From contig OZ241855.1 in the NCBI GenBank assembly GCA_965202785.1, forward strand, positions 256,001-320,000: a stretch of DNA of 64,000 bases, written 5' to 3'. The DNA comes from Thermodesulfobacteriota bacterium. Lineage in GTDB: Bacteria; Desulfobacterota_D; UBA1144; Nemesobacterales; Nemesobacteraceae. The stretch's first letter is position 1; each line of letters opens with the position of its first letter. The notes under the pieces are model-generated. The model saw nothing but the letters and a program-made list of their open reading frames with translations. It searched no databases and had not been told where the DNA came from. The translations under genes were made by a program, and so were the position numbers. Below, piece by piece: positions 8,542-23,982 of the stretch.

Positions 8542-9669
8542 ATGAAAAAAGCTTACCTCGCGCTTGAAGGCGGAAAAGTATTTGAAGGCACAAGCTTCGG
8601 AGCCCAAGGAGAGGCAGCCGGCGAAGTTGTTTTCAATACCTCCTTAACGGGTTACCAGGAAATACTCACGGATCCTTCCTATAACGGTCAGATCATCGTA
8701 ATGACCTACCCCGAAATAGGCAACTACGGAATCAACCCCGAGGATTTCGAATCAGAAAAACCTCACCTAAGCGGTTTCGTCGTAAAGGAATACTGGGACC
8801 ACCCGAGCAACTGGAGGTCGAAAGAGAGCCTCGACAGTTTTCTCTCAAGACATGGGATACCCGGCATACAGGGAATCGACACCAGGGAACTTACAAGGAT
8901 CATACGAATTGGTGGAGCGATAAAGGGGATTATCTCAACTGCCGAGACAAGCCCTGAGGCTCTTGCCGAGAAAGTCGACTCCTCGCCGGGAATAGTCGGA
9001 CGCGACCTTGTAACAGAAGTAAGCTGTGCTCAGCCTTACGCATGGGACGAGGGAACGGGAAAGTGGCGCCACAGCAGGGACAAAAACTCCGAACCCTCCA
9101 GAAAATTCAAAGTCGCCGTCTACGACTTCGGAATAAAGAGAAACATACTCAGGGAGCTTCACGATCTTGGATGCGAAACAACGGTTTTTCCGTCGAAAAC
9201 GGACTCCAAGGACATACTGGCCTTCGACCCCGACGGGATTTTCCTCTCAAACGGACCCGGGGACCCGGCCGCGGTTAAATACGCTTCGAAGAATGTAAGA
9301 AAACTTATCGGGAAAAAACCCATTTTCGGGATCTGCCTGGGACACCAGATACTGGGTCTCGCTCTCGGAGGAAAAACCTTCAAGCTAAAATTCGGGCATC
9401 GCGGAGGAAACCAGCCGGTTAAGAATCTTGCGACCGGAAAGGTGGAGATAACTTCGCAGAATCACGGCTTCGCCGTGGATCCCGATTCACTTAAAAGCAA
9501 TGTCGCCGTCTCCCACGTAAACCTGAACGATCAGACCGTCGAGGGACTGAAACACAAGGAGTATCCCCTATCCTGCGTCCAGTATCACCCCGAGGCCTCA
9601 CCCGGGCCGCATGATTCTTCCTATCTTTTCAGAGACTTCATCGAGATGATGGAAGATTTTTCAGCGTAA
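8542..9669 (+). CDS. carA: Carbamoyl-phosphate synthase small subunit
   Basis: GEVVFNT, LSNGPGDP, GICLGHQ, QYHPEASPGPHD. Confidence 0.97.
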   Translation: MKKAYLALEGGKVFEGTSFGAQGEAAGEVVFNTSLTGYQEILTDPSYNGQIIVMTYPEIGNYGINPEDFESEKPHLSGFVVKEYWDHPSNWRSKESLDSFLSRHGIPGIQGIDTRELTRIIRIGGAIKGIISTAETSPEALAEKVDSSPGIVGRDLVTEVSCAQPYAWDEGTGKWRHSRDKNSEPSRKFKVAVYDFGIKRNILRELHDLGCETTVFPSKTDSKDILAFDPDGIFLSNGPGDPAAVKYASKNVRKLIGKKPIFGICLGHQILGLALGGKTFKLKFGHRGGNQPVKNLATGKVEITSQNHGFAVDPDSLKSNVAVSHVNLNDQTVEGLKHKEYPLSCVQYHPEASPGPHDSSYLFRDFIEMMEDFSA

Positions 9670-9975
9670 GCATTCAGACAGGGAACGACCTATGCTCGGT
9701 ATTTAAAGAAAGGGAATTAAGTATTTAACTTGACAGCTTTAGGGGGTTTCCAGTTTAATTCCAGCCTTCTCGTATGCTTCCTTCGGAGCCCTGTTTGCAT
9801 CTAGTATCACCTGAACTTCTATCTCTGAGTATTTTCCGAAAAAGTGGTTTTGTTGGACTATGAAAGCACGGTTTAAGAAGAGATTCGGCGAAAAAATAAT
9901 TAACAGAACATACCTTTACATCGCCATACTGAATCGATTTTTCGTTTCAAGAAGCAAGTTCAGGAATAATATACA

Positions 9976-10302
9976 ATGCTAGCTAAAGAGAACCCTCTAG
10001 CCTGCTTGCGACTACAGAAAGAGGGTGATAAAATGACTAGGGAGGGGTTTATGCTGAGCGAAGTAAGCAATAAGTTGAAAAAAAACTGGGATGCATTCAA
10101 CGCTGCTAAAGAAGAACTTGAAGCAGAACACCTAGGAAAAACAGCGTTATTGCATGATGGGAAAGTCGTTGCCATATACAACGACAGTGGAGATGCTTAT
10201 ACCATTGGTCGTGAGAAGTACGGGTTGGGAAATTTCTCAACACAGACGATAGGAGAGAAACCTATACATCTCGGAATATTCACTCTCCGCCTACCGAGAT
10301 AA
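9976..10302 (+). CDS. Small hypothetical protein, DUF5678-like partner of a retropepsin (true start probably 10033 or 10051)
   Basis: GKTALLHDGKVVAIY...DAY..G pattern; directly upstream of an aspartyl protease. Confidence 0.65.
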   Translation: MLAKENPLACLRLQKEGDKMTREGFMLSEVSNKLKKNWDAFNAAKEELEAEHLGKTALLHDGKVVAIYNDSGDAYTIGREKYGLGNFSTQTIGEKPIHLGIFTLRLPR

Positions 10303-10322
10303 ACGAAACACCCTTAAAACAA

Positions 10323-10766
10323 ATGGCTACTTTTAACGGGATAGTTGTAGATAATCAGATTATTTTTGTTGTCTGGATCGCTATTTCTGGAGATCCCCAA
10401 GACTGGGAAAATCCTAAGGCATATAGGGCATTGCTAGACACGGGAGCACAAAGAACAATGGTTTCCGGGAAAGTGGTAGAAGAAGTAGGGTTAATTGCAA
10501 GCGGGTTCTTTTCGATTAGTGGCGTGACCGGGGATACCATTACAGCAGATAAGTATAAAGTTAGAATTGATATCCCAATCATGAGAGAGGCAAGAAGTCT
10601 TGGCGGAGGCACTCGCACAGAACCTGTGTTAAGTGGCAAGGACATAGATGTCGCACTGTTTCCCGATTCCTTCAAACCAGAAACTTTTGATGTTTTGCTT
10701 GGAATGGATTTCCTGTACGGGTTTCACTTAACCATATTTGCAGATACATTCATCCTTAGCAATTAG
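10323..10766 (+). CDS. Retropepsin-like (clan AA) aspartyl protease
   Basis: ALLDTGA catalytic motif and LLGMDFL C-terminal motif; single domain. Confidence 0.88.
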   Translation: MATFNGIVVDNQIIFVVWIAISGDPQDWENPKAYRALLDTGAQRTMVSGKVVEEVGLIASGFFSISGVTGDTITADKYKVRIDIPIMREARSLGGGTRTEPVLSGKDIDVALFPDSFKPETFDVLLGMDFLYGFHLTIFADTFILSN

Positions 10767-10832
10767 TCTGAATGTTAGTCAAGATTTGCGGGCGCGGTGA
10801 AAAAAGTCGTGGGAAAATGTGGAAAAATTGAG

Positions 10833-10892
10833 CCGCTCCATGAAGTCATAAAAACTGATTCTTTCTCTTTTCGATTTGGGTTTCTGTCCCAC
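10833..10892 (-). pseudogene. Possible N-terminal remnant of an IS1595-family transposase
   Basis: GTG-started frame just inside the TIR reads GQKPKSKRERISFYDFMER, resembling IS1595 transposase N-termini; very short. Confidence 0.35.
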
Positions 10893-10951
10893 TGTTTTCA
10901 GAGGCTTTGCCAAGTTAAATACATAATTCCCCTAAAAATATAATAGAGTCT

Positions 10952-11422
10952 CTAAGATTGATCTTCCGAATCCGACCCTCTCGTCACTTTCCGATGAGAT
11001 TCTCGGGAGGAAATCAACACGCGGTTGATGATAGTCGACGGGTGTTCATCACCTTCCAACACGAAACCTTTAGCTTTAAGTTCCCGCGAGACGCGCTCGT
11101 TGTGTTCCCAGAATTCATTCTCAAGCCGCTTGTTCTCTTCGGGGTCGTCTGAAACTCTCCGCATGCTGCAATATGAATCGAGGCTTCTGGAACTGCCGTC
11201 GGCATACAAACGGACATGCCTGTCGTTCGTCATGCGATGAGAGGCGTAATAATCAAGATAGTCGCCAGTTTCGTCCGTTCCAAACAGATACCAGATAGTC
11301 CATCCGCTCTTGACTATCTTCCCTTTTTGTCGATTTTTGACGGCTTCTTCCGGGAGCTCGATACTCCAGGTCTCAAAAGACCTGTTGAAATTCACAATAT
11401 GCTGGTCCACAGAGCTACTCAT
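10952..11422 (-). CDS. Hypothetical protein
   Basis: 156-aa ORF with protein-like composition and a YYASHRMTNDRH motif. Confidence 0.7.
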   Translation of the reverse strand: MSSSVDQHIVNFNRSFETWSIELPEEAVKNRQKGKIVKSGWTIWYLFGTDETGDYLDYYASHRMTNDRHVRLYADGSSRSLDSYCSMRRVSDDPEENKRLENEFWEHNERVSRELKAKGFVLEGDEHPSTIINRVLISSRESHRKVTRGSDSEDQS

Positions 11423-11443
11423 CTAGCTTTTTTCTTTCACGTA

Positions 11444-11614
11444 TTATCCCATTTCTTCCCTTTCCAAGTGTCTTTCAAGGAATTCTATTGTCCGCAACGT
11501 AAGTTCCGCTTTCTCATCAAGCCCTTCAAGTCTTTCCTCCTTCATTTTTGCGTTGAGCAGCCTGTACAGATGTCCATATATATCCGAAGGGGTCTTTATC
11601 TTCTGTTCCTGCAT
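11444..11614 (-). CDS. Small helical hypothetical protein
   Basis: GGGAGG RBS before the ATG at 11614 (MQEQKIK...). Confidence 0.55.
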   Translation of the reverse strand: MQEQKIKTPSDIYGHLYRLLNAKMKEERLEGLDEKAELTLRTIEFLERHLEREEMG

Positions 11615-11685
11615 ATTATATTCCTCCCTAGAGCAATATGAGTTTAACCGACCGGATACTCCCATTTAGAAGTATGTGGTGCAAT

Positions 11686-12396
11686 TTATCCACACACATC
11701 TTTTTTGAGCAGGCCTACATACTTGTCGGCAAGCCTTGTAGGTTCGGGAACCCTAAGACCTCGGGAACACTCAAGGGCAATTGCAACTGAGGTATCGAGA
11801 TCAACTCTGTTCCCAATAGACACGAAAACCGGCTTCACACCGTCTCTGGTTCTTAAAGCGGCACCAACAACTTCGCCGTCCCTTCCCCTCATTAGTGTTC
11901 TTTCACCCTTATTAAGTCCTGGTTCACTGAAAGTCCCATAGAGGCATTTTTTCGCAACACCCATCGCCGGAATATCAAGCAAAACCCCGACGTGACAGGC
12001 AAGTCCAAAGCCTCTTGGGTGAGCAAGTCCGTGTCCGTCCACCATAATCATGTCACAGCGCTCACTAAGCTTACCGAAGGTGTCGATGACGCAAGGAGCT
12101 TCTCTGAAACCCAGAAGCCCCGGAATATAGGGGAATACTTCGTCCGATACGGTCCATACCCTTTCGATCTCTTCTAGTTTGGGGTAGGAAAAAAGAATTA
12201 TTCCGCAGACAAGCTTTTTTTCCTTAACGCAGATAGAGATATCGGCACCGGCAATTGTGTGAATAGGCTTCGGGTCAGGGGTTTTTACAACTCTTTGCGA
12301 AAGCTCTTTCTGAATGCGAAAACCTTCTCTTACAGGAGGAGGCTTTGCGGAGTAAAGTATTTCAAGGTCTTTTATCAAGTCGCCCTTGTGGTGCAT
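11686..12396 (-). CDS. nfi: Endonuclease V (deoxyinosine 3' endonuclease)
   Basis: AGAD, FPYIPGLLGFRE wedge, VDGHGLAHPRGFGLACH, PEPTRLAD. Confidence 0.95.
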   Translation of the reverse strand: MHHKGDLIKDLEILYSAKPPPVREGFRIQKELSQRVVKTPDPKPIHTIAGADISICVKEKKLVCGIILFSYPKLEEIERVWTVSDEVFPYIPGLLGFREAPCVIDTFGKLSERCDMIMVDGHGLAHPRGFGLACHVGVLLDIPAMGVAKKCLYGTFSEPGLNKGERTLMRGRDGEVVGAALRTRDGVKPVFVSIGNRVDLDTSVAIALECSRGLRVPEPTRLADKYVGLLKKDVCG

Positions 12397-12414
12397 GAAA
12401 ACAGAATACCTGCA

Positions 12415-13290
12415 CTAAAGCTGACAGTGGGCACACGCACTACCTATAGGTATTCGATTACCTGACTTCTCGCAATGACTGCAACCGTACTTGCCGTAGA
12501 ACCATAGTGCAGGATCAAGTGCAGCACTTGTTCCTGCAATCCGGGGCGGTCCTCCTATATCGGTCTTGGCAACTGCATTGTGGCAGGCGTTTTGGATTAT
12601 CGGTTTTGCTTCTCTAAGCCTAAGCCCCCGTGTGTCCGCAATGCCCAGATTCTCTGTCGTACGACGAACCTGAACATCTACCGCTACCGGGACTGCCTCC
12701 ATGCGGGTTACCTTGGCCCCACCCGGGTTCACCATGATCCGAATCCACATCGGTCCAATCTTCTGACCGCGAAGAAATGGAAATTTGGACCGACCCATGC
12801 TGTCTTTACTTTTGAGTGCCGTGAGCAGTTCCTCCGCGTCTCCAAGGCCACGGTTTATTACGCGGCGTATCGAACTATCCTCGGAAACTAAATTAGTAGC
12901 AATAGTACGCCAAGCTTGTGAGTCCGGTCCGTGGCGCTGGCTTACCCCACTTTCAGACAGCCTTAATCTGAGTGTAGAAAGGGTAATCTTTGTTACTTCA
13001 GCAGGATCGAAAAGTTCCGAATGCGATCTAAAAAGTTCCGCCGCGACCCGCCACAGGCGATTTGCATCTCTTGCACGGTCCATTGCCGAAACGAAGGTCA
13101 GAAACAAACGCACGGTACGGTCAGATGCACCGGAAGCACGCATCTCCTGTACAAATTCAACCTCTGGCATTTGCGACCATGGATCATATGACGTTATGCC
13201 TCTCTGGGATAAATCAAGTTGACCGCCGTAGAAGTCACTGGAAATCATTTTGACTATTCGTACCGTATCAGACATTTCCGAGGTTCCCAA
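12415..13290 (-). CDS. Helix-hairpin-helix DNA glycosylase/lyase-like protein with C-terminal CxxC-x12-CxxC
   Basis: FPFLRGQKIG (HhH Lys), PVAVDVQV (Asp), LDPALWFYG; GGAGG RBS before TTG at 13290. Confidence 0.7.
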   Translation of the reverse strand: MGTSEMSDTVRIVKMISSDFYGGQLDLSQRGITSYDPWSQMPEVEFVQEMRASGASDRTVRLFLTFVSAMDRARDANRLWRVAAELFRSHSELFDPAEVTKITLSTLRLRLSESGVSQRHGPDSQAWRTIATNLVSEDSSIRRVINRGLGDAEELLTALKSKDSMGRSKFPFLRGQKIGPMWIRIMVNPGGAKVTRMEAVPVAVDVQVRRTTENLGIADTRGLRLREAKPIIQNACHNAVAKTDIGGPPRIAGTSAALDPALWFYGKYGCSHCEKSGNRIPIGSACAHCQL

Positions 13291-13307
13291 AACAGCCTCC
13301 GTCACTT

Positions 13308-13748
13308 TTATAAGGAATCTGTATTCAATATTTCTTTGTACCACTTAAGCTGGAAACCGAAAGTGTAGTGCGCAAGCGGACGACGGACTAAAGCACCAGC
13401 ATCCCTCAACCTCTCTTCTAAACCGAATTTAACATAACGTTCACCTGCGTGAATCTCGATTACTTTTCCTTTTAACATCGATTCCTTGGCCATCAACTCA
13501 TCAAAGACTTGCTTAGACCATTCGCGACATGTCGCTACCGGAAAATTGTTAAGTGTTAAGTTATATGGCTTTATTTCGTCGTCGGGAACCAGTAATCCAT
13601 ACTTGGCACTGAGTATATACCAAGAGCAACCTAGTTTCTCCGCGTAAGCTCGCCGGAAACTCCAAAGTGATGATATATATAGATCCTTGGCAAGGCTTTT
13701 ATAATCACGTTTCTTCTTGACACAACCAACCAGAAGGATTCGAATCAT
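13308..13748 (-). CDS. DUF6884-like protein (original 5' end displaced by an insertion)
   Basis: LVGCVKKK, AKDLY.S, YILSAKYGL, PYNLTL, PL...FG.Q motifs. Confidence 0.8.
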   Translation of the reverse strand: MIRILLVGCVKKKRDYKSLAKDLYISSLWSFRRAYAEKLGCSWYILSAKYGLLVPDDEIKPYNLTLNNFPVATCREWSKQVFDELMAKESMLKGKVIEIHAGERYVKFGLEERLRDAGALVRRPLAHYTFGFQLKWYKEILNTDSL

Positions 13749-13923
13749 CCTATTCTTAGGGAATTATTAACTTTACTTGACAAGTATTCTGCGAATCTGT
13801 TACCCATTTTAAGAGAAAACCATGAGAAGGTTTATTGTGTTCACTTCGGGGGCTGTTCTTTTTTTAGGGAATTACCAGCTTAACTCGGTAATCCCCTTTT
13901 TTTCGTCCAGATTTTTTCAATTG

Positions 13924-14211
13924 ATGAGAAAGATACTAGTTCTTAGCCTGCTGTTTGCATTGCTGGTTGTTCCAGCAAGCACGCAGGAACTTCCAAAAGA
14001 CCAAAAAGCATATGTTTTAGCAATTCAGTCTTTTGGGTGGAAATGCAACCAAGTCAAAAATTGGAAAGGGGAAAGAATTGCCGCACAGCATAGCGTTATC
14101 AAAATCACATGCGACTGGGGTCGGGCATACTATCTGAGAAATGTATTTGTTCCTGGAGAAGGTTATCATATGACTTTTTGCTACAAAGGCAATTGTAAGA
14201 GATTTGAGTGA
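13924..14211 (+). CDS. Small secreted protein with four Cys
   Basis: Signal peptide MRKILVLSLLFALLVVPASTQ from the ATG at 13924. Confidence 0.65.
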   Translation: MRKILVLSLLFALLVVPASTQELPKDQKAYVLAIQSFGWKCNQVKNWKGERIAAQHSVIKITCDWGRAYYLRNVFVPGEGYHMTFCYKGNCKRFE

Positions 14212-14251
14212 TTTTGCAAGCCCCTAACTACTTATTGCGTTTTTTTATTCA

Positions 14252-15094
14252 TTAATCGTCAAATGGGCTAAAAAAAGTTACCCCAATGCTTCGGTAACCT
14301 TCACCAGGATCAAGCTTCTGGATTTCTTCTCTCTTGTCAATAACCGGCGGCTCAAGGCTGTCAATATCTTTTGAAACCCCCCACTGCTGTTCTTCCCCCC
14401 GATAAAGAGCTAAGTCATATTGTCCTAGATGATCTGGCCCATATAGAATTTCCACCCGGTCTCCGAGTTTGTCGCAATTCTCAGAATTTATTCTGACGTA
14501 TAACCAACGCCAATATTTCTCATAACGATCCCGTCGCAGCCGGCGACTGCAAGTGGATTGATAGGGGTCCAGTTTGGCGTTGTTTGCAGACTTTATAGCC
14601 TGGATGCAACCGAGTATGATTTCATGCATGAACTCTATGCTGATTCGCGGCATCTTCTGACTTCGTTTTTTCTCAATGAGGAAGTACCGCCAGTCGAAAG
14701 AACCTATATTCTTATCGCCATCAAGATTCGCAAGGAAGTCATCCAGGGAACTGAATGGGAATATTTCTTTCCTAACGCCTAAGAAGAAAAGACTGTCCCT
14801 ATAGTCGTTATAATATTCTCTGAGAATCGCCTTGTCCTCCTCTTTGAATAATTCAAAGAGAGGATGTAGAGAGTGTTTCTTCTGGACTTCTTCCCCTCGG
14901 GCATGCAGGAGTCCCTTGAATGCCTGCTCCATAAGGAAGTAGGCGGTTACAATGTAGCTCCACCACTGCGTAGCTTCGTAGTCTGGCAGTAAGTCCGGGT
15001 TTACCGGGCATTTCTCGTACTTTTCCTTTTCTTTCTTTAAAGCGAACTTCAGCCATAGGCTGATAGTTGAGGGGTCCTTAAAATCGATTGACAT
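14252..15094 (-). CDS. HEPN-like domain protein
   Basis: EQAFKGLL...KKHSLHPLF and later WRY, resembling HEPN folds. Confidence 0.6.
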   Translation of the reverse strand: MSIDFKDPSTISLWLKFALKKEKEKYEKCPVNPDLLPDYEATQWWSYIVTAYFLMEQAFKGLLHARGEEVQKKHSLHPLFELFKEEDKAILREYYNDYRDSLFFLGVRKEIFPFSSLDDFLANLDGDKNIGSFDWRYFLIEKKRSQKMPRISIEFMHEIILGCIQAIKSANNAKLDPYQSTCSRRLRRDRYEKYWRWLYVRINSENCDKLGDRVEILYGPDHLGQYDLALYRGEEQQWGVSKDIDSLEPPVIDKREEIQKLDPGEGYRSIGVTFFSPFDD

Positions 15095-15216
15095 GAGAGA
15101 TCACCTGCCCCGCCAATAAAGATAAACAAGGTTAGTTTGATTAGCAAGGCAACCTCTGATAGAATAACCTCGTTGACATTTGTGCGAACCCGCCCTATGA
15201 AACTCAATCACATATA

Positions 15217-15594
15217 TTGCGGAAGGAGGAATACATGCAGATTAAAAAAGTTTGGCTTGTCGCAGGGATAATCCTCGCCCTTGTCGGCATACCAGGCGTT
15301 CTTGAGGATTTACAAAGTTGGGAGTACCTGCTTTCAAGACTCGGAACGTGGCAACTATGGAATTATCTTTTGCTTTTGGGTGGGATCAGTGTATCTGTCT
15401 GGTCTCTACTGCCGGTTTTTTATCGGCAACAAAGACCGCTCTCAAGAAAGAAAGACAGGTGGACGAAACTGGTAGAGAAACTTGAACCTGACCAGATCCT
15501 CGAACTTGAAAAAGATAGGAGCCAGAATCATATGGGCTACTTTGTTTGTACCCTAGTCTCCGCCTTGATCCTTGTAGGAATCTTGAGTTGTTAA
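15217..15594 (+). CDS. Small membrane protein (about 3 TMs; start probably 15235)
   Basis: AGGAGG RBS before the ATG at 15235; hydrophobic segments. Confidence 0.6.
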   Translation: MRKEEYMQIKKVWLVAGIILALVGIPGVLEDLQSWEYLLSRLGTWQLWNYLLLLGGISVSVWSLLPVFYRQQRPLSRKKDRWTKLVEKLEPDQILELEKDRSQNHMGYFVCTLVSALILVGILSC

Positions 15595-15813
15595 CAGTGA
15601 GCCCAACGCTTTTGATATTCTTCTGTCAATTTGGGTCATAAGAACTAGGACTCTGGTTAGCGTAGGTGTTACCTCAACCTCTTTGCCTTGGACGTTCCTG
15701 AAGAATCTTAGATAGCCCTCATATTGCTCTATACGCAAATCTCCTTCATTCAACATTAGACCGTTCCTCCTAACTGATAACAATTCCAAAGCGTGCGTGA
15801 TATTCACTAGCAT
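15553..15813 (-). CDS. Hypothetical protein
   Basis: 86-aa ORF only; its 3' end overlaps the convergent gene. Confidence 0.35.
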   Translation of the reverse strand: MLVNITHALELLSVRRNGLMLNEGDLRIEQYEGYLRFFRNVQGKEVEVTPTLTRVLVLMTQIDRRISKALGSLLTTQDSYKDQGGD

Positions 15814-16001
15814 TTTATCACATTGTCTAAATAGTCAAGGTAACTTTTTTACCATTATATGTCATAGAGCACCTCTGCCAAGTATTCTTAGTAATTCCCT
15901 ATTCTTATTCGGCATAATCCCTCCCCCAGAAGTTTTTTGGATAGTTATACAGTTGGCAAACTAATGTAACACCTTAAAGTCCCTTTAAGGATTCAAGACG
16001 G

Positions 16002-16334
16002 TTACCGGGACACGCTTCTCTCCAAAACATGCACAATCCAACTGTTCAGACTCATTTTACTTTCTTCCGCAGCAACAACTATGCGTTTGTGTAGATCAGA
16101 ACCAAGTCTAACATTGAGCTTGCCCGAGAAAGGCTTTACAGGTTCTAATCCGTCTTCTTCGCAAGAAGCAATATACTCATCAATCGAACGATGAAACTCT
16201 TCCCGAATTCCCTCAACATCAGTTGCTTCAAAAGTGGCAATCGGATAACTGCCGCTGTTAATAACTCTTCCGTGAAGACACCCTACGGAATCGTCAAATT
16301 CGACCACGGCAATGTACCCCTTGTACTCAATCAT
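16002..16334 (-). CDS. hicB: HicB family antitoxin (RHH C-terminus)
   Basis: YKGY, SIDEY.ASC, KPFSGKLNVRL, SLNSW. Confidence 0.9.
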   Translation of the reverse strand: MIEYKGYIAVVEFDDSVGCLHGRVINSGSYPIATFEATDVEGIREEFHRSIDEYIASCEEDGLEPVKPFSGKLNVRLGSDLHKRIVVAAEESKMSLNSWIVHVLERSVSR

Positions 16335-16375
16335 GGCTTCATTCCTTCAGCTTTGAGGAAAGCAGTTACATCTGG
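16331..16375 (-). pseudogene. 3' remnant of hicA toxin
   Basis: Frame reads DVTAFLKAEGMKP* with its TGA overlapping the hicB ATG (ATGA); no start, in-frame stop just upstream. Confidence 0.55.
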
Positions 16376-16397
16376 TTAGAATAGAATATACGAAAAT

Positions 16398-17270
16398 ATG
16401 TTCGGCAAAAACTTCAAAAAGCAAAAAATACGGACTACCGAAGCTGAGATAAACACCGTTTGGGGAGGAAAGGGAGAACCTATCCTTCTACTCCACGGTT
16501 ACCCGCAAACCCACGTCATGTGGCACGCGGTAGCACGCTCACTTGCCTCGAACTTTCTGGTCGTGTGTCCAGATCTCCGTGGCTATGGAGACAGCTCCAA
16601 GCCTGCCGGAAAAAAAGATCACTCAAACTATTCAAAAAGAGCCATGGCCGCGGATATGGTCTCGGTAATGAAAGCTCTGGGTTTTCATGAATTCTACGCA
16701 GCGGGACACGACAGAGGAGGCAGGGTGCTTCACCGCATGTGCCTCGATCACCCTGAAAAAGTCCTAAAGGTCTGCGTCATGGATATAGCCCCTACCCACC
16801 ACATGTTCAAGACCGCGGACAAGCACTTTTCCACGGGCTACTATCACTGGTTTTTTCTTATCCAACCCGACGGACTTCCGGAAAAAATGATAGGGGCTGA
16901 TCCAGAGTACTACCTTCTTGAAAAGCTCAGACGCTGGAGCGCCCCCGGTGCGAAATTTGATTCCAAGGCAGTAAAAGAGTACGTGCGCTGTTTCAGCGAC
17001 CCGCTCGCAATCCACGCAAGCTGCGAGGACTACAGGGCTGCGGCCTCCATAGATATTGCTCACGACGAAGAAGATATGGATGCCAAGATAACGTGTCCGC
17101 TTCTTGCCCTTTGGGGTGGAAGGGGGTTCATTCACAAAACCTACGACGTGCTTGACGTATGGAGAAAAAAAGCGCTCAGCGTTTCGGGAAAACCGCTTGA
17201 CTGCGGCCATTTTCTCCCTGAAGAAAAACCCCAGGAGACCTCCGCGGAACTGCTGTCGTTTTTTGGATAA
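16398..17270 (+). CDS. Haloacetate/fluoroacetate dehalogenase-like alpha/beta hydrolase
   Basis: LHGYPQT, GHDRGGRV (Asp nucleophile, two Arg), YYHW, EDYRA, CGHF. Confidence 0.85.
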   Translation: MFGKNFKKQKIRTTEAEINTVWGGKGEPILLLHGYPQTHVMWHAVARSLASNFLVVCPDLRGYGDSSKPAGKKDHSNYSKRAMAADMVSVMKALGFHEFYAAGHDRGGRVLHRMCLDHPEKVLKVCVMDIAPTHHMFKTADKHFSTGYYHWFFLIQPDGLPEKMIGADPEYYLLEKLRRWSAPGAKFDSKAVKEYVRCFSDPLAIHASCEDYRAAASIDIAHDEEDMDAKITCPLLALWGGRGFIHKTYDVLDVWRKKALSVSGKPLDCGHFLPEEKPQETSAELLSFFG

Positions 17271-17403
17271 CGGAATTTCCCGAAGCATTCCAAGTACTGC
17301 CCCTCCTATCCGAGAAAGTTTCGGGAGCAAAAAAAAGCCGTAGAATCTTTTGCTAAATATTATTCGTGGTTCAACCGTTTTACATCAAGCTCGTGTCAGC
17401 ACT

Positions 17404-17450
17404 GGCATATCTTGTCATATGCCGCTATGTGGTATATACTGTCATATACC
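17404..17450. promoter_or_regulatory. Tandem palindromic operator of vapBC
   Basis: GGCATAT-N6-ATATGCC (17404-17423) and GGTATAT-N6-ATATACC (17431-17450). Confidence 0.75.
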
Positions 17451-17466
17451 AATACAGGAGGTGGCC

Positions 17467-17712
17467 ATGCACATCGCAAAAATTTTTAAGAACGGCCGTA
17501 GCCAAGCTGTCCGTATACCGAAAGATTTCGCCTACGAAGGCGTAACGGAACTGACTGTCCAGAAGGTCGGCGAAAAGCTGATCCTAGAGCCGGTGCGCAA
17601 ATCCTGGCTAACCCTATATGACGAGATCGAGCCGCTAGGAGCAGATGATGATTTTCTGGCTGACCGCCCTGACTTGTTCGCTATTGACGAAAACAGGGTG
17701 AAGTTTAAATGA
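17467..17712 (+). CDS. vapB: VapB antitoxin (AbrB/MazE type)
   Basis: KIFKNGRSQAVRIPK; AGGAGG RBS before 17467. Confidence 0.92.
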   Translation: MHIAKIFKNGRSQAVRIPKDFAYEGVTELTVQKVGEKLILEPVRKSWLTLYDEIEPLGADDDFLADRPDLFAIDENRVKFK

Positions 17713-18119
17713 ACTACATGCTCGATACGGACACCTTCAGCTACATCATGCACCATCACGCTTTATCGGTTGTCAAAGCCCTAGACGAGAAAATGCGTGC
17801 GGGCCATGTTATCTGCATCTCAGTGATCACTTATCAGGAACTGCGCTTTGGGGCAGAACGACGTGGTTCCGTGAAATATCACAACTTGATCGATACGATC
17901 TGCAACCGGCTTGACTATATAGCCGAATGGAATACGGAATGTGCTGACCAATTTGCCGTCGTTCAGTCCTCCTTACTGAAGAAAGGGATGCCGATCGGCT
18001 ATACAGATGCCATGATCGCTTCTCACGCCATCTGTCTTGGCGCTACACTGGTAACGAACAACTACAAACACTTCTCAAACGTGGACGGTTTGTCTCTGGA
18101 CAACTGGGTTTCGTCTTGA
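17709..18119 (+). CDS. vapC: VapC PIN-domain toxin
   Basis: YMLDTD, ELRFG, DAMIASHA, LVTNN. Confidence 0.93.
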   Translation: MNYMLDTDTFSYIMHHHALSVVKALDEKMRAGHVICISVITYQELRFGAERRGSVKYHNLIDTICNRLDYIAEWNTECADQFAVVQSSLLKKGMPIGYTDAMIASHAICLGATLVTNNYKHFSNVDGLSLDNWVSS

Positions 18120-18396: not shown

Positions 18397-19356
18397 ATGT
18401 CGAAAATGCTCTTCGTTATGGACCCGATTGAGTCCATAAACATAAACAAGGACACCACCTTCGTAATAATGCTTGAATGCCAGGCGAGAGGACACGAAAT
18501 CCGCTACTGCGAACTCAAGGATCTTTTCGTCAAGGACTCTATGGCCTGGGCGGATTCAACAAAGCTTCGCCTCGAGAGAAAAAGCGATTACTACGCCAAG
18601 GGTTCCACGGAAACCTCCCCGCTTGACGACTTCGACGTCGTATGGATGAGAAAAGATCCTCCCTTCAACATGGACTATATCTACTCAACCTACATACTAA
18701 GCAGGGTTGACGAATCCGAAACGCCTGTGATCAACCATCCGGCCGGAATAAGGGAATCCAACGAGAAGATATACAGCCTTAATTTTGCCGACTACATCCC
18801 CCCTACCCTGGTTTCAAAAGACATTGGAAAGCTAAAAGAGTTTCTCTGCGAAACCGGCAATGAAATGGTGGTAAAGCCGCTTGACGGCTACGGCGGGGAG
18901 GGAATTTTCCTCGTAAGGGCCGAGGATCCCAACCTCAACGTCATACTCGAGAACATAACGGACTTCGGGCGGACCTACGTGATGGCCCAGAAATTCATAA
19001 AAGAGGTTTCCCAGGGAGACAAAAGGGTTATAATTCTAAACGGCCAGCCCATAGGAGCCGTGATGAGGGTAGCCGCAAAGGGAGAATTCAGAAGCAACTT
19101 CCACTCCGGAGGACATCCCGAGAAAACCACGCTTACGGAAAGGGATCTGCAAATATGCGACGGCCTCAGACAGAAACTCATAGAAGACCGGCTCTATCTG
19201 GTCGGAATCGACATAGTCGGAGGGTATCTGACCGAAGTCAACACCACGAGCCCGACATGCGTTCAGGAAATAAATTTTTTCAGCGGGACAAAGCTTGAAT
19301 CGCAGATAGTCGATTTTGCGGAGAGCATTGTCTGCGGGCCTCCAGAGAGCCGTTAA
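18397..19356 (+). CDS. gshB: Glutathione synthetase
   Basis: MDPI, KDTT, MRKDPPF, EVNTTSPT. Confidence 0.95.
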   Translation: MSKMLFVMDPIESININKDTTFVIMLECQARGHEIRYCELKDLFVKDSMAWADSTKLRLERKSDYYAKGSTETSPLDDFDVVWMRKDPPFNMDYIYSTYILSRVDESETPVINHPAGIRESNEKIYSLNFADYIPPTLVSKDIGKLKEFLCETGNEMVVKPLDGYGGEGIFLVRAEDPNLNVILENITDFGRTYVMAQKFIKEVSQGDKRVIILNGQPIGAVMRVAAKGEFRSNFHSGGHPEKTTLTERDLQICDGLRQKLIEDRLYLVGIDIVGGYLTEVNTTSPTCVQEINFFSGTKLESQIVDFAESIVCGPPESR

Positions 19357-23130: not shown

Positions 23131-23982
23131 TCACGGAACCGGCCCGTCGCCGTCCCAGATTTCAAGAGCCACTCTGTATATTCCGTTTTTAGAAACTCCG
23201 AAGGCTCTGCTTACAAGGGAAACGGCTTCACTCAGCGAAAATCCCCGTTCCCTGAGAAGCCAAAGCGTGCTCTGAGCCGCATCAGCAGACGCCTCGCTGT
23301 GCCCGTCCCCGCTCCCTTCCACAACTACCGTCACCTCCCCTTTCAGAGTTTCTCTTTCTGAAAGAACAGAAATCACCTCGGACAATGATCCCCTGAGCAC
23401 TTCTTCATAAAGTTTTGTCATTTCCCTTGCGACGCAGATATTCCTGTCGCCGAGAATCTCCAGCATAAGACTCAATGTACGTGAAAGTCTCTTGGCGGAC
23501 TCGTAAAAAACCAGAGTATAAGGGTAGCGTTTTACGTCCTTTAGAAGCTCTTTCTTCTTGGCTATGGTCTTCGGAAAAAACCCGAGAAAAAGAAAACTGT
23601 CCGTGGGAAGTCCCGAAACAACAAGCGCTGACAAAACGGCCGAAGGACCGGGTACGGGAACTACTTCTATATTGTTTTCAATCGAGAGATTTACAAGCCT
23701 CCACCCGGGGTCGGAAACCGAAGGAGTTCCGGCGTCGGAAACAAGCCCTATGTTCTTGCCGTCTTTGAGTCTTTCAAGCAGCTTGGGCGATTTCTCAACC
23801 TCGTTGTGTTCATGGTAGCTTGTGAGGTTGGTTTCGATTCCGTAACGGGCAAGAAGTTTTTTTGTGTTTCTCGTATCCTCGCACGCTATAACATCACAAT
23901 CCTTAAGAACGTTTACAGCCCGCAAAGTTATGTCTTCAAGATTTCCTATCGGGGTAGAGACCACGAAGAGTTTTCCAAACAT
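23131..23982 (-). CDS. rsmI: 16S rRNA (C1402-2'-O) methyltransferase
   Basis: TPIGNLEDIT, EDTR, SDAGTP, REMTK. Confidence 0.95.
   Translation of the reverse strand: MFGKLFVVSTPIGNLEDITLRAVNVLKDCDVIACEDTRNTKKLLARYGIETNLTSYHEHNEVEKSPKLLERLKDGKNIGLVSDAGTPSVSDPGWRLVNLSIENNIEVVPVPGPSAVLSALVVSGLPTDSFLFLGFFPKTIAKKKELLKDVKRYPYTLVFYESAKRLSRTLSLMLEILGDRNICVAREMTKLYEEVLRGSLSEVISVLSERETLKGEVTVVVEGSGDGHSEASADAAQSTLWLLRERGFSLSEAVSLVSRAFGVSKNGIYRVALEIWDGDGPVP

Follow-up and report, generated by a model that had tools for sequence, protein, structure and literature searches.

How did two groups of small genes, each enclosed by an inverted pair of 24-bp repeats, come to lie between carA and gshB in the genome of an uncultured Thermodesulfobacteriota bacterium? 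The question is raised by a stretch of 64,000 nucleotides, hereafter the window, which represents bases 256001-320000 of a single 1.64-Mb contig (GenBank assembly GCA_965202785.1, contig OZ241855.1; genome G000, estimated to be 96% complete). An earlier, sequence-only reading of this DNA regarded the two segments, herein cassette 1 (9712-10931) and cassette 2 (13759-15899), as transposase-less cargo cassettes with IS1595-type ends that are shuttled in trans. Insertion sequences (ISs) of the IS1595 family encode a transposase with a Zn-ribbon and a DDE domain, which binds ends of ~24-26 bp and inserts the segment between them; AT-rich DNA is targeted and 8 bp of it are duplicated. In the present study, the four repeats are identified, with high though not complete confidence, as the terminal inverted repeats (TIRs) of two IS1595-family elements that are without their transposase gene. 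Both are assigned to the IS1595 family because of their ends, the target duplication of cassette 2, the transposase remnant of cassette 1 and the elements of related genomes. The window contains one clear mobile insertion cassette (MIC), cassette 2, and one dead transporter IS, cassette 1. The sequence-only reading is largely upheld in its identification of the elements, but its claims of present activity, of defence or toxin cargo and of an entire region built by cassettes reach further than the evidence.

Several lines of evidence lead to this answer. First, the repeat is a defined motif in which a spacer of 8 variable bp separates a conserved tip, GGGAATTA, from a conserved inner part, ACTTGACA. 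Exact matches to GGGAATTA-N8-ACTTGRCA were observed at 9712-9735 (+), 10908-10931 (-), 13759-13782 (+) and 15876-15899 (-), with alternating orientation across the four copies, exactly as the sequence-only reading had placed them. When up to two mismatches were allowed, five matches were found compared with 0.05 expected, and none of 100 dinucleotide-preserving shuffles gave five; the fifth (13867-13890, two mismatches) is one arm of a 30-bp palindrome and no cassette end. The left copies terminate in TTGACA and the right copies in TTGGCA. This polarity, which the sequence-only reading had pointed out, is present in both window pairs but is not a feature of the family, as the two ends of the elements in relatives are mostly identical (24 of 24 positions in 12 of the 18 real pairs compared; a 19th row, L034 301/2325, was mis-paired). 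The genome-wide search suggested earlier returned seven matches with at most one mismatch in the whole 1.64-Mb genome and none for the backwards pattern. A position weight matrix (PWM) built from 32 distinct copies gave 18 hits of at least 12 bits in G000 and none in the reversed genome, and many of these hits are unpaired relics. Strong repeats at 23269, 35424, 43970, 153675, 227889, 756614, 1314126 and 1321731 have no partner within 9 kb, and the only partner candidate of the repeat at 661808 scores 4.4 bits and has flanks that do not match; all of these are treated as solo ends.

Second, the same ends enclose a transposase in relatives. The motif is present in 20 of 41 related genomes, G000 counted (two hits overall for the backwards-pattern control), and 17 of the 24 other genomes in the genus carry it. 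Many of these hits form inverted pairs, of which 12 and then four more were fetched. The pairs that are 2.0-5.6 kb apart enclose an open reading frame (ORF) of 308-324 aa, present as broken pieces at locus L019, together with unrelated genes, and all eight fetched pairs with this ORF or its L019 remains are flanked by an exact 8-bp duplication directly outside GGGAATTA; the boundary of the element is therefore set at the first G. All five of these ORFs scanned against Pfam matched DDE_Tnp_IS1595 (PF12762; E 1e-39 to 1e-43) and Zn_ribbon_IS1595 (PF12760), and the one compared with NCBIfam matched NF033547, "IS1595 family transposase", with 197 bits at a cut-off of 75. The passengers of these elements include a 1,094-aa N6-methylase/Eco57I-like protein, a 749-aa MmeI-like methylase, a fusion of an N4/N6 methylase with an HNH domain, a trypsin-like protease and small membrane proteins. 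In a wider search of a collection with one genome per species, transposase relatives with 46-55% identity were found in records titled Dehalococcoidia, Rhodothermales, Terriglobia and others, the nearest being titled Candidatus Dadabacteria or Thermodesulfobacteriota. The pattern G[GT]G[AG]ATTA[TC] was present within 140 nt upstream of the transposase start at 61 of 79 loci from several phyla (controls, 1 and 0), and the repeat tip is therefore considered a family-level signature. The tip also agrees with ggnnatTAT, the end given in ISfinder for the ISNwi1 subgroup, to which the elements may belong; a literature search on ISNwi1, ISSod11 and ISPna2 returned no table of family ends.

These results are consistent with published descriptions. 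Passages of PMC8101967 attribute to the IS1595 family 8-bp target site duplications, a Zn finger with a DDE_Tnp_IS1595 domain and a terminal GG, and an AT-rich 8-bp duplication has been demonstrated experimentally for ISEc69, according to part of PMC7835479. The window TIRs are 24 bp long and start with GGG, where roughly 20-40 bp are expected; the transposase was found within the same repeats in relatives, and the window has a remnant only. The view that the family makes 8-bp duplications and has passenger-carrying and transposase-less derivatives was thus borne out by the eight transposase-bearing pairs, by cassette 2 and by derivatives that occur in relatives alongside cognate transposases. 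Two further observations concern the family in relatives. Genome G048 gave 40 matches to the IS1595 transposase model, many of them identical copies split into pieces of 50 and 172 positions, which points to recent multiplication of an element whose transposase is frameshifted or made from two ORFs. In G033 (L035:301-4786), two miniature elements of ~430 bp bracket 3.6 kb with an ABC-type ATPase gene and TPR-like genes, and both outer flanks read TAATATAA, as expected for a composite transposon of two miniature elements.

Third, cassette 2 has the edges of a single insertion. It is 2,141 bp long, and none of its four passenger ORFs is transposase-like. Its left TIR (13759-13782, +; 36.3 bits with the PWM) and right TIR (15876-15899, -; 20.2 bits) are both exact motif matches and agree at 19 of 24 positions, and the 8 bp directly outside them, TATTCTTA, are identical at all eight positions on the left (13751-13758) and on the right (15900-15907). 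The right copy accounts for the end coordinate, 15907, given in the sequence-only reading. Because of this exact duplication at both edges, cassette 2 is regarded as having been inserted as one unit, and we infer that it is a MIC whose transposase was supplied from elsewhere. The passengers comprise a 94-aa protein with a hydrophobic, signal-peptide-like N-terminus (13927-14211, +), a weakly HEPN-like 280-aa protein (14252-15094, -; Pfam HEPN E 0.0012, below the cut-off; in Atlas, a "HEPN domain-containing protein" cluster came first with 0.90, recognition being low), a 119-aa membrane protein (15235-15594, +) and the product of an 86-aa ORF (15553-15813, -) that is located 3' of a promoter-like site borne by the right TIR. 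The 119-aa protein is 31% identical (E 2e-9) to a passenger in an autonomous IS1595 element of G003 (L017 2742-3170). The 94-aa and 86-aa proteins had no family match in the Pfam, PADLOC and NCBIfam scans, and a broken homologue of the 280-aa gene, with 79% identical DNA, occurs elsewhere in G042 without TIRs. No second copy of cassette 2 was found in the relatives searched.

Between the left TIR and the first passenger lies a conserved module of ~110 bp (13787-13897, +), non-coding or with a mini-ORF, which occurs once in G000 and matches, with 89% identity over 111 bp, a segment just beyond the end of an IS1595 element of G003. A hydrophobic peptide of 14 aa could be encoded here, ahead of the 30-bp palindrome, GGGAATTACC-N10-GGTAATCCCC, with which the module ends between T-runs. 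An Rfam scan of 9000-17000 with E values up to 1 gave no match, this module included. The palindrome (consensus GGGAATTACC-N10-GGTAATYCCC; 13867-13896 in the window) resembles two repeat tips placed head to head and also occurs at G000:C1:756585-756614 and at L034:301-330. The window copy is flanked by a T7 run on either side, an arrangement reminiscent of a bidirectional terminator or of a minimal miniature element, and the copy at 756585 may mark the left end of an element of 652 bp that reaches to 757236 (flanks matching at 7 of 8 positions).

Fourth, cassette 1 retains the trace of its own transposase. It is 1,220 bp long, and its left TIR (GGGAATTAAGTATTTAACTTGACA; 9712-9735, +; 35.1 bits) and its right, transposase-proximal TIR (10908-10931, -; 38.5 bits) are exact motif matches that agree with each other at 22 of 24 positions. 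The earlier statement that the pairs enclose no transposase holds for intact genes in both pairs; cassette 1, however, keeps the 5' remnant of an IS1595 transposase gene, with its promoter deleted, at 10788-10892 (-). By tblastn, the remnant comprises 35 aa with 57% identity to residues 1-35 of the G022 transposase. When the DNA was aligned with that of three intact elements, homology to the first ~22 transposase codons extended over ~66 nt, with the ATG changed to GTG, and then stopped; a deletion of ~42 bp inward of the right repeat takes out the -10 box and the ribosome-binding site. The remnant stands next to the right repeat. Cassette 1 is therefore considered a dead passenger-carrying IS, a decayed autonomous element and not the dedicated transposase-less shuttle that had been proposed. 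It is a former transporter IS in which deletion removed the transposase gene after ~22 codons, together with the promoter.

The passengers of cassette 1 are a 108-aa DUF5678-like protein (9976-10302, +; Pfam PF18929 E 0.002, a weak match below the cut-off) and a 147-aa retropepsin-like aspartyl protease (10323-10766, +), which matched PF13975 and PF13650 above their cut-offs, gave first Atlas hits at 0.96 to Asp_protease_2 clusters and had a weak PADLOC match to PDC-M08B (E 3e-5). The evidence for a defence- or toxin-like cargo, as proposed in the sequence-only reading, is weak and consists of weak matches only. In G042, a solo repeat at an unrelated place is followed by the DUF5678 gene and the start of the protease gene with 93% identical DNA. 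As further observations, G020 has a 1,111-bp transposase-less cassette (L151:1154-2264) with a DUF5678-like and aspartyl-protease pair, the protease being 58% identical, between repeats of another subtype (GGGAATTATATACAATGYTAGCC) and without duplicated flanks, and in G006 such a pair is present without repeats. The DUF5678-like and protease genes form a conserved module of two genes, which these elements have carried on more than one occasion.

Fifth, the site of cassette 1 is empty in relatives. In ten genomes of the genus (G003, G007, G011, G018, G019, G023, G024, G042, G047 and G049), the sequence that begins at ~10942 in the window starts 2-50 bp after carA. The junctions were read by exact 12-mer anchoring at three of five fetched loci, in G049, G011 and G003, where the carA stop is followed by CTCGGCATTGAAGATGC joined to AATAGAGTCTC, to within ~10 bp, with nothing equivalent to 9712-10931; G007 and G047 rest on match coordinates. 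Insertion of cassette 1, between carA and the gene that follows it, is confined to this lineage. The search for empty sites that had been suggested earlier succeeded for cassette 1 but not for cassette 2.

Several observations weigh against the assignment of the two segments to IS1595 transposition. This genome contains no transposase, and the evidence for transposition is indirect, consisting of insertion polymorphism and duplications. The flanks of cassette 1, TAAAGAAA versus CTAAAAAT, agree at four of eight positions, or at six of eight when shifted by one base, which leaves no intact duplication, and the target sequence has diverged in relatives, so that the insertion is not reconstructable base for base. 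The ends of cassette 2 differ at five of 24 positions, four of them in the variable N8, and could derive from two different elements. No empty site of cassette 2 was present in the 36 genus genomes searched with its right flank (15900-16140); this flank was found in only two of the 35 other genomes, G042 (from base 94) and G012 (weak), in neither of which it adjoins the left flank, and in G045 the left-flank gene is followed by ~560 bp of unrelated sequence and no clean empty site. The contigs of four sequencing runs show the occupied form of cassette 2 or end at the repeat: contigs of X10 and X8 bridge the occupied form, and a contig of X11 with four differences stops exactly at 15899. No joint removing 13759-15907 was found among them. 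Two joints in these contigs were examined as excisions and rejected. In the joint 9738>10911 (X8), the short side comprises only 22 letters inside the two repeats, and it was not counted; the joint 9659>11717 (X8, X11) contains 70 other letters and was attributed to a strain variant in which sequence is replaced.

The alternative that survives best is that cassette 2 is not one unit and that two solo ends or miniature elements came to lie around resident genes, or that two elements contributed one end each. The agreement of its ends at only 19 of 24 positions, with four of the eight spacer positions differing, would be in keeping with such an origin, and the G033 composite between flanks TAATATAA demonstrates that paired miniature elements exist in a relative. 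Nevertheless, we consider it improbable: for a given pair, chance would produce an exact 8-bp duplication at the outer edges about once in 65,000, whereas one insertion of the entire segment yields just such a duplication. Even a composite would count as a single mobile unit, and in none of the relatives were the enclosed genes found here without the ends.

A closely similar, marginally lower degree of plausibility is given to the view that the cassettes are a currently working gene shuttle, mobilised in trans within this genome. In its favour, both conserved boxes are intact in the ends, the duplication of cassette 2 is undecayed, and cognate transposases are common in the genus, where 28 of 36 genomes exceed the NF033547 cut-off. 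However, a tblastn search of G000 with four transposases yielded only three fragments in this single contig: the C-terminal 66 aa at 1290417-1290614, the N-terminal ~130 aa at 1315510-1315896 and the remnant in the window. PF12762 is represented in G000 by one piece of 44 positions with a TGA stop, and no intact cognate transposase was detected in this genome, the best NF033547 score being 49.7 bits at the cut-off of 75. The lack of a contig joint removing cassette 2 and the lost duplication of cassette 1 also argue against a working shuttle. The intact IS1595 transposase with the same ends that was to be looked for according to the sequence-only reading does exist, but in relatives, and in this genome only as fragments. 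Since there is no intact cognate transposase in G000, both cassettes are therefore stranded now, and they are immobile at present unless a transposase arrives by gene transfer. In other words, mobilisation in trans in this genome is a past or potential event and not a working system. Concerning the N-terminal fragment, the ORF at G000:C1:1315495-1315893 (-) encodes 132 aa that represent nothing but the N-terminal, Zn-ribbon portion of an IS1595-type transposase, with 30-38% identity to the transposases of the genus. At a distance of 1.4 kb from this ORF, which may be a truncated or a domesticated gene, lies the strong solo repeat at 1314126.

The repeat might also serve as a promoter element. 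Its inner box, TTGACA, is a -35-like hexamer that faces into the element. On the transposase-proximal side, five of eight intact elements have a -10 hexamer matching at least four of six positions 16-18 nt after the TIR TTGACA, three of which are TATAAT. In the window, the right TIR of cassette 2 provides the -35 box of a site TTGGCA-16-TATAAT (15854-15881, -), which matches the consensus at 11 of 12 positions, is located upstream of the 86-aa ORF and is the best sigma-70-like site in the 6.5 kb scanned (9600-16100); at the left end of cassette 1, TTTAAT is found at 18 nt. Thus, a TIR promoter that expresses the transposase, and sometimes the cargo, is plausible as judged from consensus matches: the TIR -35 box probably drives the transposase in intact relatives and may drive cargo from the other end, which is clear only for the right end of cassette 2. 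On the opposing side, no good -10 accompanies two of the TIRs, the left one of cassette 2 and the right one of cassette 1; the count of promoter-like sites in the region did not exceed that in shuffles (14 versus 9.4 +/- 3.2), and promoter calls are consensus matches only. Terminator-like sites in the scanned region were likewise not above shuffles.

This -35 box, TTGACA or TTGGCA with one copy giving the 11/12 promoter match, is what would favour reading the motif as a transcription-factor operator that overlaps the box and is repeated for regulation. We regard this as very unlikely. In relatives, inverted pairs with 8-bp duplications enclose a transposase; presence/absence polymorphism coincides with repeat boundaries; two of the four window copies face gene 3' ends or have no -10; and the genome-wide PWM hits number just 18, many of them unpaired relics. 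The occurrence mainly in core promoters that was named earlier as the mark of a transcription-factor site was not seen, though the repeat has a -35-like TTGACA. The least credible alternative, invertons or shufflon-like segments turned by a site-specific recombinase, accounts for inverted repeats around 1.2-2.1 kb with a promoter at one end, but no recombinase gene was found within the region or next to it, inversion systems do not produce direct 8-bp flank duplications, and no contig has the inverted form, the sole back-joint being one low-depth contig away from the repeats. Integron gene cassettes, whose attC sites share one orientation and accompany an integrase and attI, were ruled out by the alternating repeat orientation, and no integrase was found among 25 ORFs scanned between 6356 and 25693.

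Having identified the cassettes of the window as derivatives of IS1595-family elements, we turn to the genus as a whole, where the most frequent transposase-less cassette with such ends consists of repeats ~1.25 kb apart around one ORF of ~395 aa. This ORF encodes TnpB (NF040570, 243 bits, cut-off 100; OrfB_IS605 and Cas12f1-like TNB domain), and a TnpB query matched 28 of 36 genus genomes at E <=1e-20. Of 24 close loci (L120-L141, L148 and L149), 20 are flanked by a repeat pair with a spacing of 1,239-1,272 bp; the 8-bp duplication is exact at ten of these 20, and a one-base shift brings several others into agreement. G000 has one copy, outside the window (C1:764924-766183) and without a duplication. 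That these cassettes occur in several copies with differing duplications speaks for their mobilisation in trans. Membership in IS200/IS605 or IS607 was ruled out by the TIRs and 8-bp duplications; those families, as outlined in passages of PMC13565253, have subterminal hairpins and Y1 or serine TnpA, and neither TIRs nor target duplication. The RNAalifold consensus of the last 160 nt of 19 TnpB elements contains 32 pairs, 12 of them with compensatory changes, and in its last predicted stem the variable spacer of the right repeat is paired with internal bases. In this model, the 3' RNA structure of the TnpB cassettes appears to include the TIR.

TnpB between DDE-type inverted repeats has been reported as branches DDE-1 to DDE-6 by Altae-Tran et al. 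2023 (PMC10691335), where passages likewise describe solo TnpBs that share the ends of transposase-bearing relatives; the main text there names IS630, and the word IS1595 is absent from it. In a 2026 review (PMC13565253), ISL2, IS630 and IS1031 are listed, and our literature search for TnpB inside IS1595 ends gave none by title and abstract start. In eukaryotic Fanzor elements, TIR and target site duplication are part of the guide-RNA scaffold, according to part of PMC10711439. The TnpB-only cassettes of the genus resemble the former group in being bounded by DDE-type ends, and the latter in that their predicted 3' RNA structure runs into the TIR. The difference is that these likenesses concern relatives and one G000 copy, and not the two cassettes of the window. 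Herein, we tentatively raise the possibility, to which we give less than even weight, that the IS1595 ends of the genus form a general, promoter-equipped cassette system in which a single family of repeats encloses interchangeable cargo. The cargo would perhaps comprise restriction-modification and methylase genes, the pair of small protein and retropepsin-like protease, membrane proteins and, most often, TnpB. With the same reserve, the repeat could be thought to do three jobs, as transposase binding site, as inward-facing -35 box for the expression of any inserted gene and, in TnpB cassettes, as the last stem of the guide-RNA scaffold; and the variable 8-bp spacer might, on this reading, co-vary with its internal complement in TnpB cassettes.

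From carA (8542-9669) to gshB (18397-19356) there are ~8.7 kb, of which the cassettes account for 3.36 kb, and they do not build the whole of the accessory region, as much of the rest adjoins carA in many relatives. This applies to the block from a 156-aa gene to endonuclease V, and the alpha/beta hydrolase gene of the region is widely shared; a 309-aa gene, the DUF6884 gene, HicB and VapBC are patchy among relatives. The interval between carA and gshB is a variable spot, only two segments of which are bounded by repeats. In the scans made for the cargo, PADLOC gave no match for eight of ten proteins and NCBIfam none for all ten. The DUF6884 gene just left of cassette 2 (13308-13748, -) was matched by a candidate-defence model of PADLOC, PDC-M57A (E 1.5e-33), and weakly by DpdC, and the 309-aa gene beside it has no family match. 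Outside the cassettes, 16002-18119 contains a HicB-family antitoxin gene, with no obvious HicA ORF called beside it, and a MazE/AbrB-type antitoxin and PIN pair (VapBC-like).

Both cassettes can be placed among known systems. Passenger-carrying ISs were termed transporter ISs by Siguier, Gagnevin and Chandler in 2009, a term that came in with the IS1595 family, as cited in passages of PMC3129680 and PMC8101967. The same part of PMC3129680 traces MICs to IS231/MIC231 of Bacillus cereus (De Palmenaer et al. 2004) and states that transposase-less cassettes can be activated by a cognate transposase. The elements studied herein resemble IS1595 transporter ISs in the Zn-ribbon and DDE_Tnp_IS1595 transposase of intact relatives, in TIRs of ~24 bp that start with GG, in AT-rich 8-bp duplications and in unrelated passenger genes, but the two window elements are without a working transposase. 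Cassette 2 resembles a MIC in having IS ends, passengers, no transposase and a target duplication, and it presumably depends on a transposase acting in trans, as MIC231 does, whose mobilisation in trans is said to have been shown experimentally. In contrast to MIC231, which belongs to IS4/IS231, the family here is IS1595, and cassette 1 is visibly a deletion derivative and not a stable cassette lineage. Transporter ISs and MICs are established concepts, and the cassettes of the window are ordinary examples of a described class.

For the organism, a small genome of the Candidatus Dadabacteria type, the result means that two segments of a variable gene island came by IS1595-family transposition. 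Gene callers would call the contents of the cassettes "hypothetical" and overlook their mobile origin, and the tip GGGAATTA, the 8-bp spacer, ACTTGACA and the 8-bp duplication provide an annotation rule across the genus. The more interesting thread is that many TnpB genes are moved by the same ends, which extends the known, rare link between TnpB and DDE transposons in prokaryotes. If the tentative reading of a general cassette system were true, the guide RNA of a bacterial TnpB would have become adapted to a DDE transposon of the cut-and-paste type, as happened in eukaryotic Fanzors, and the small stranded cassettes of the window would be by-products of that traffic.

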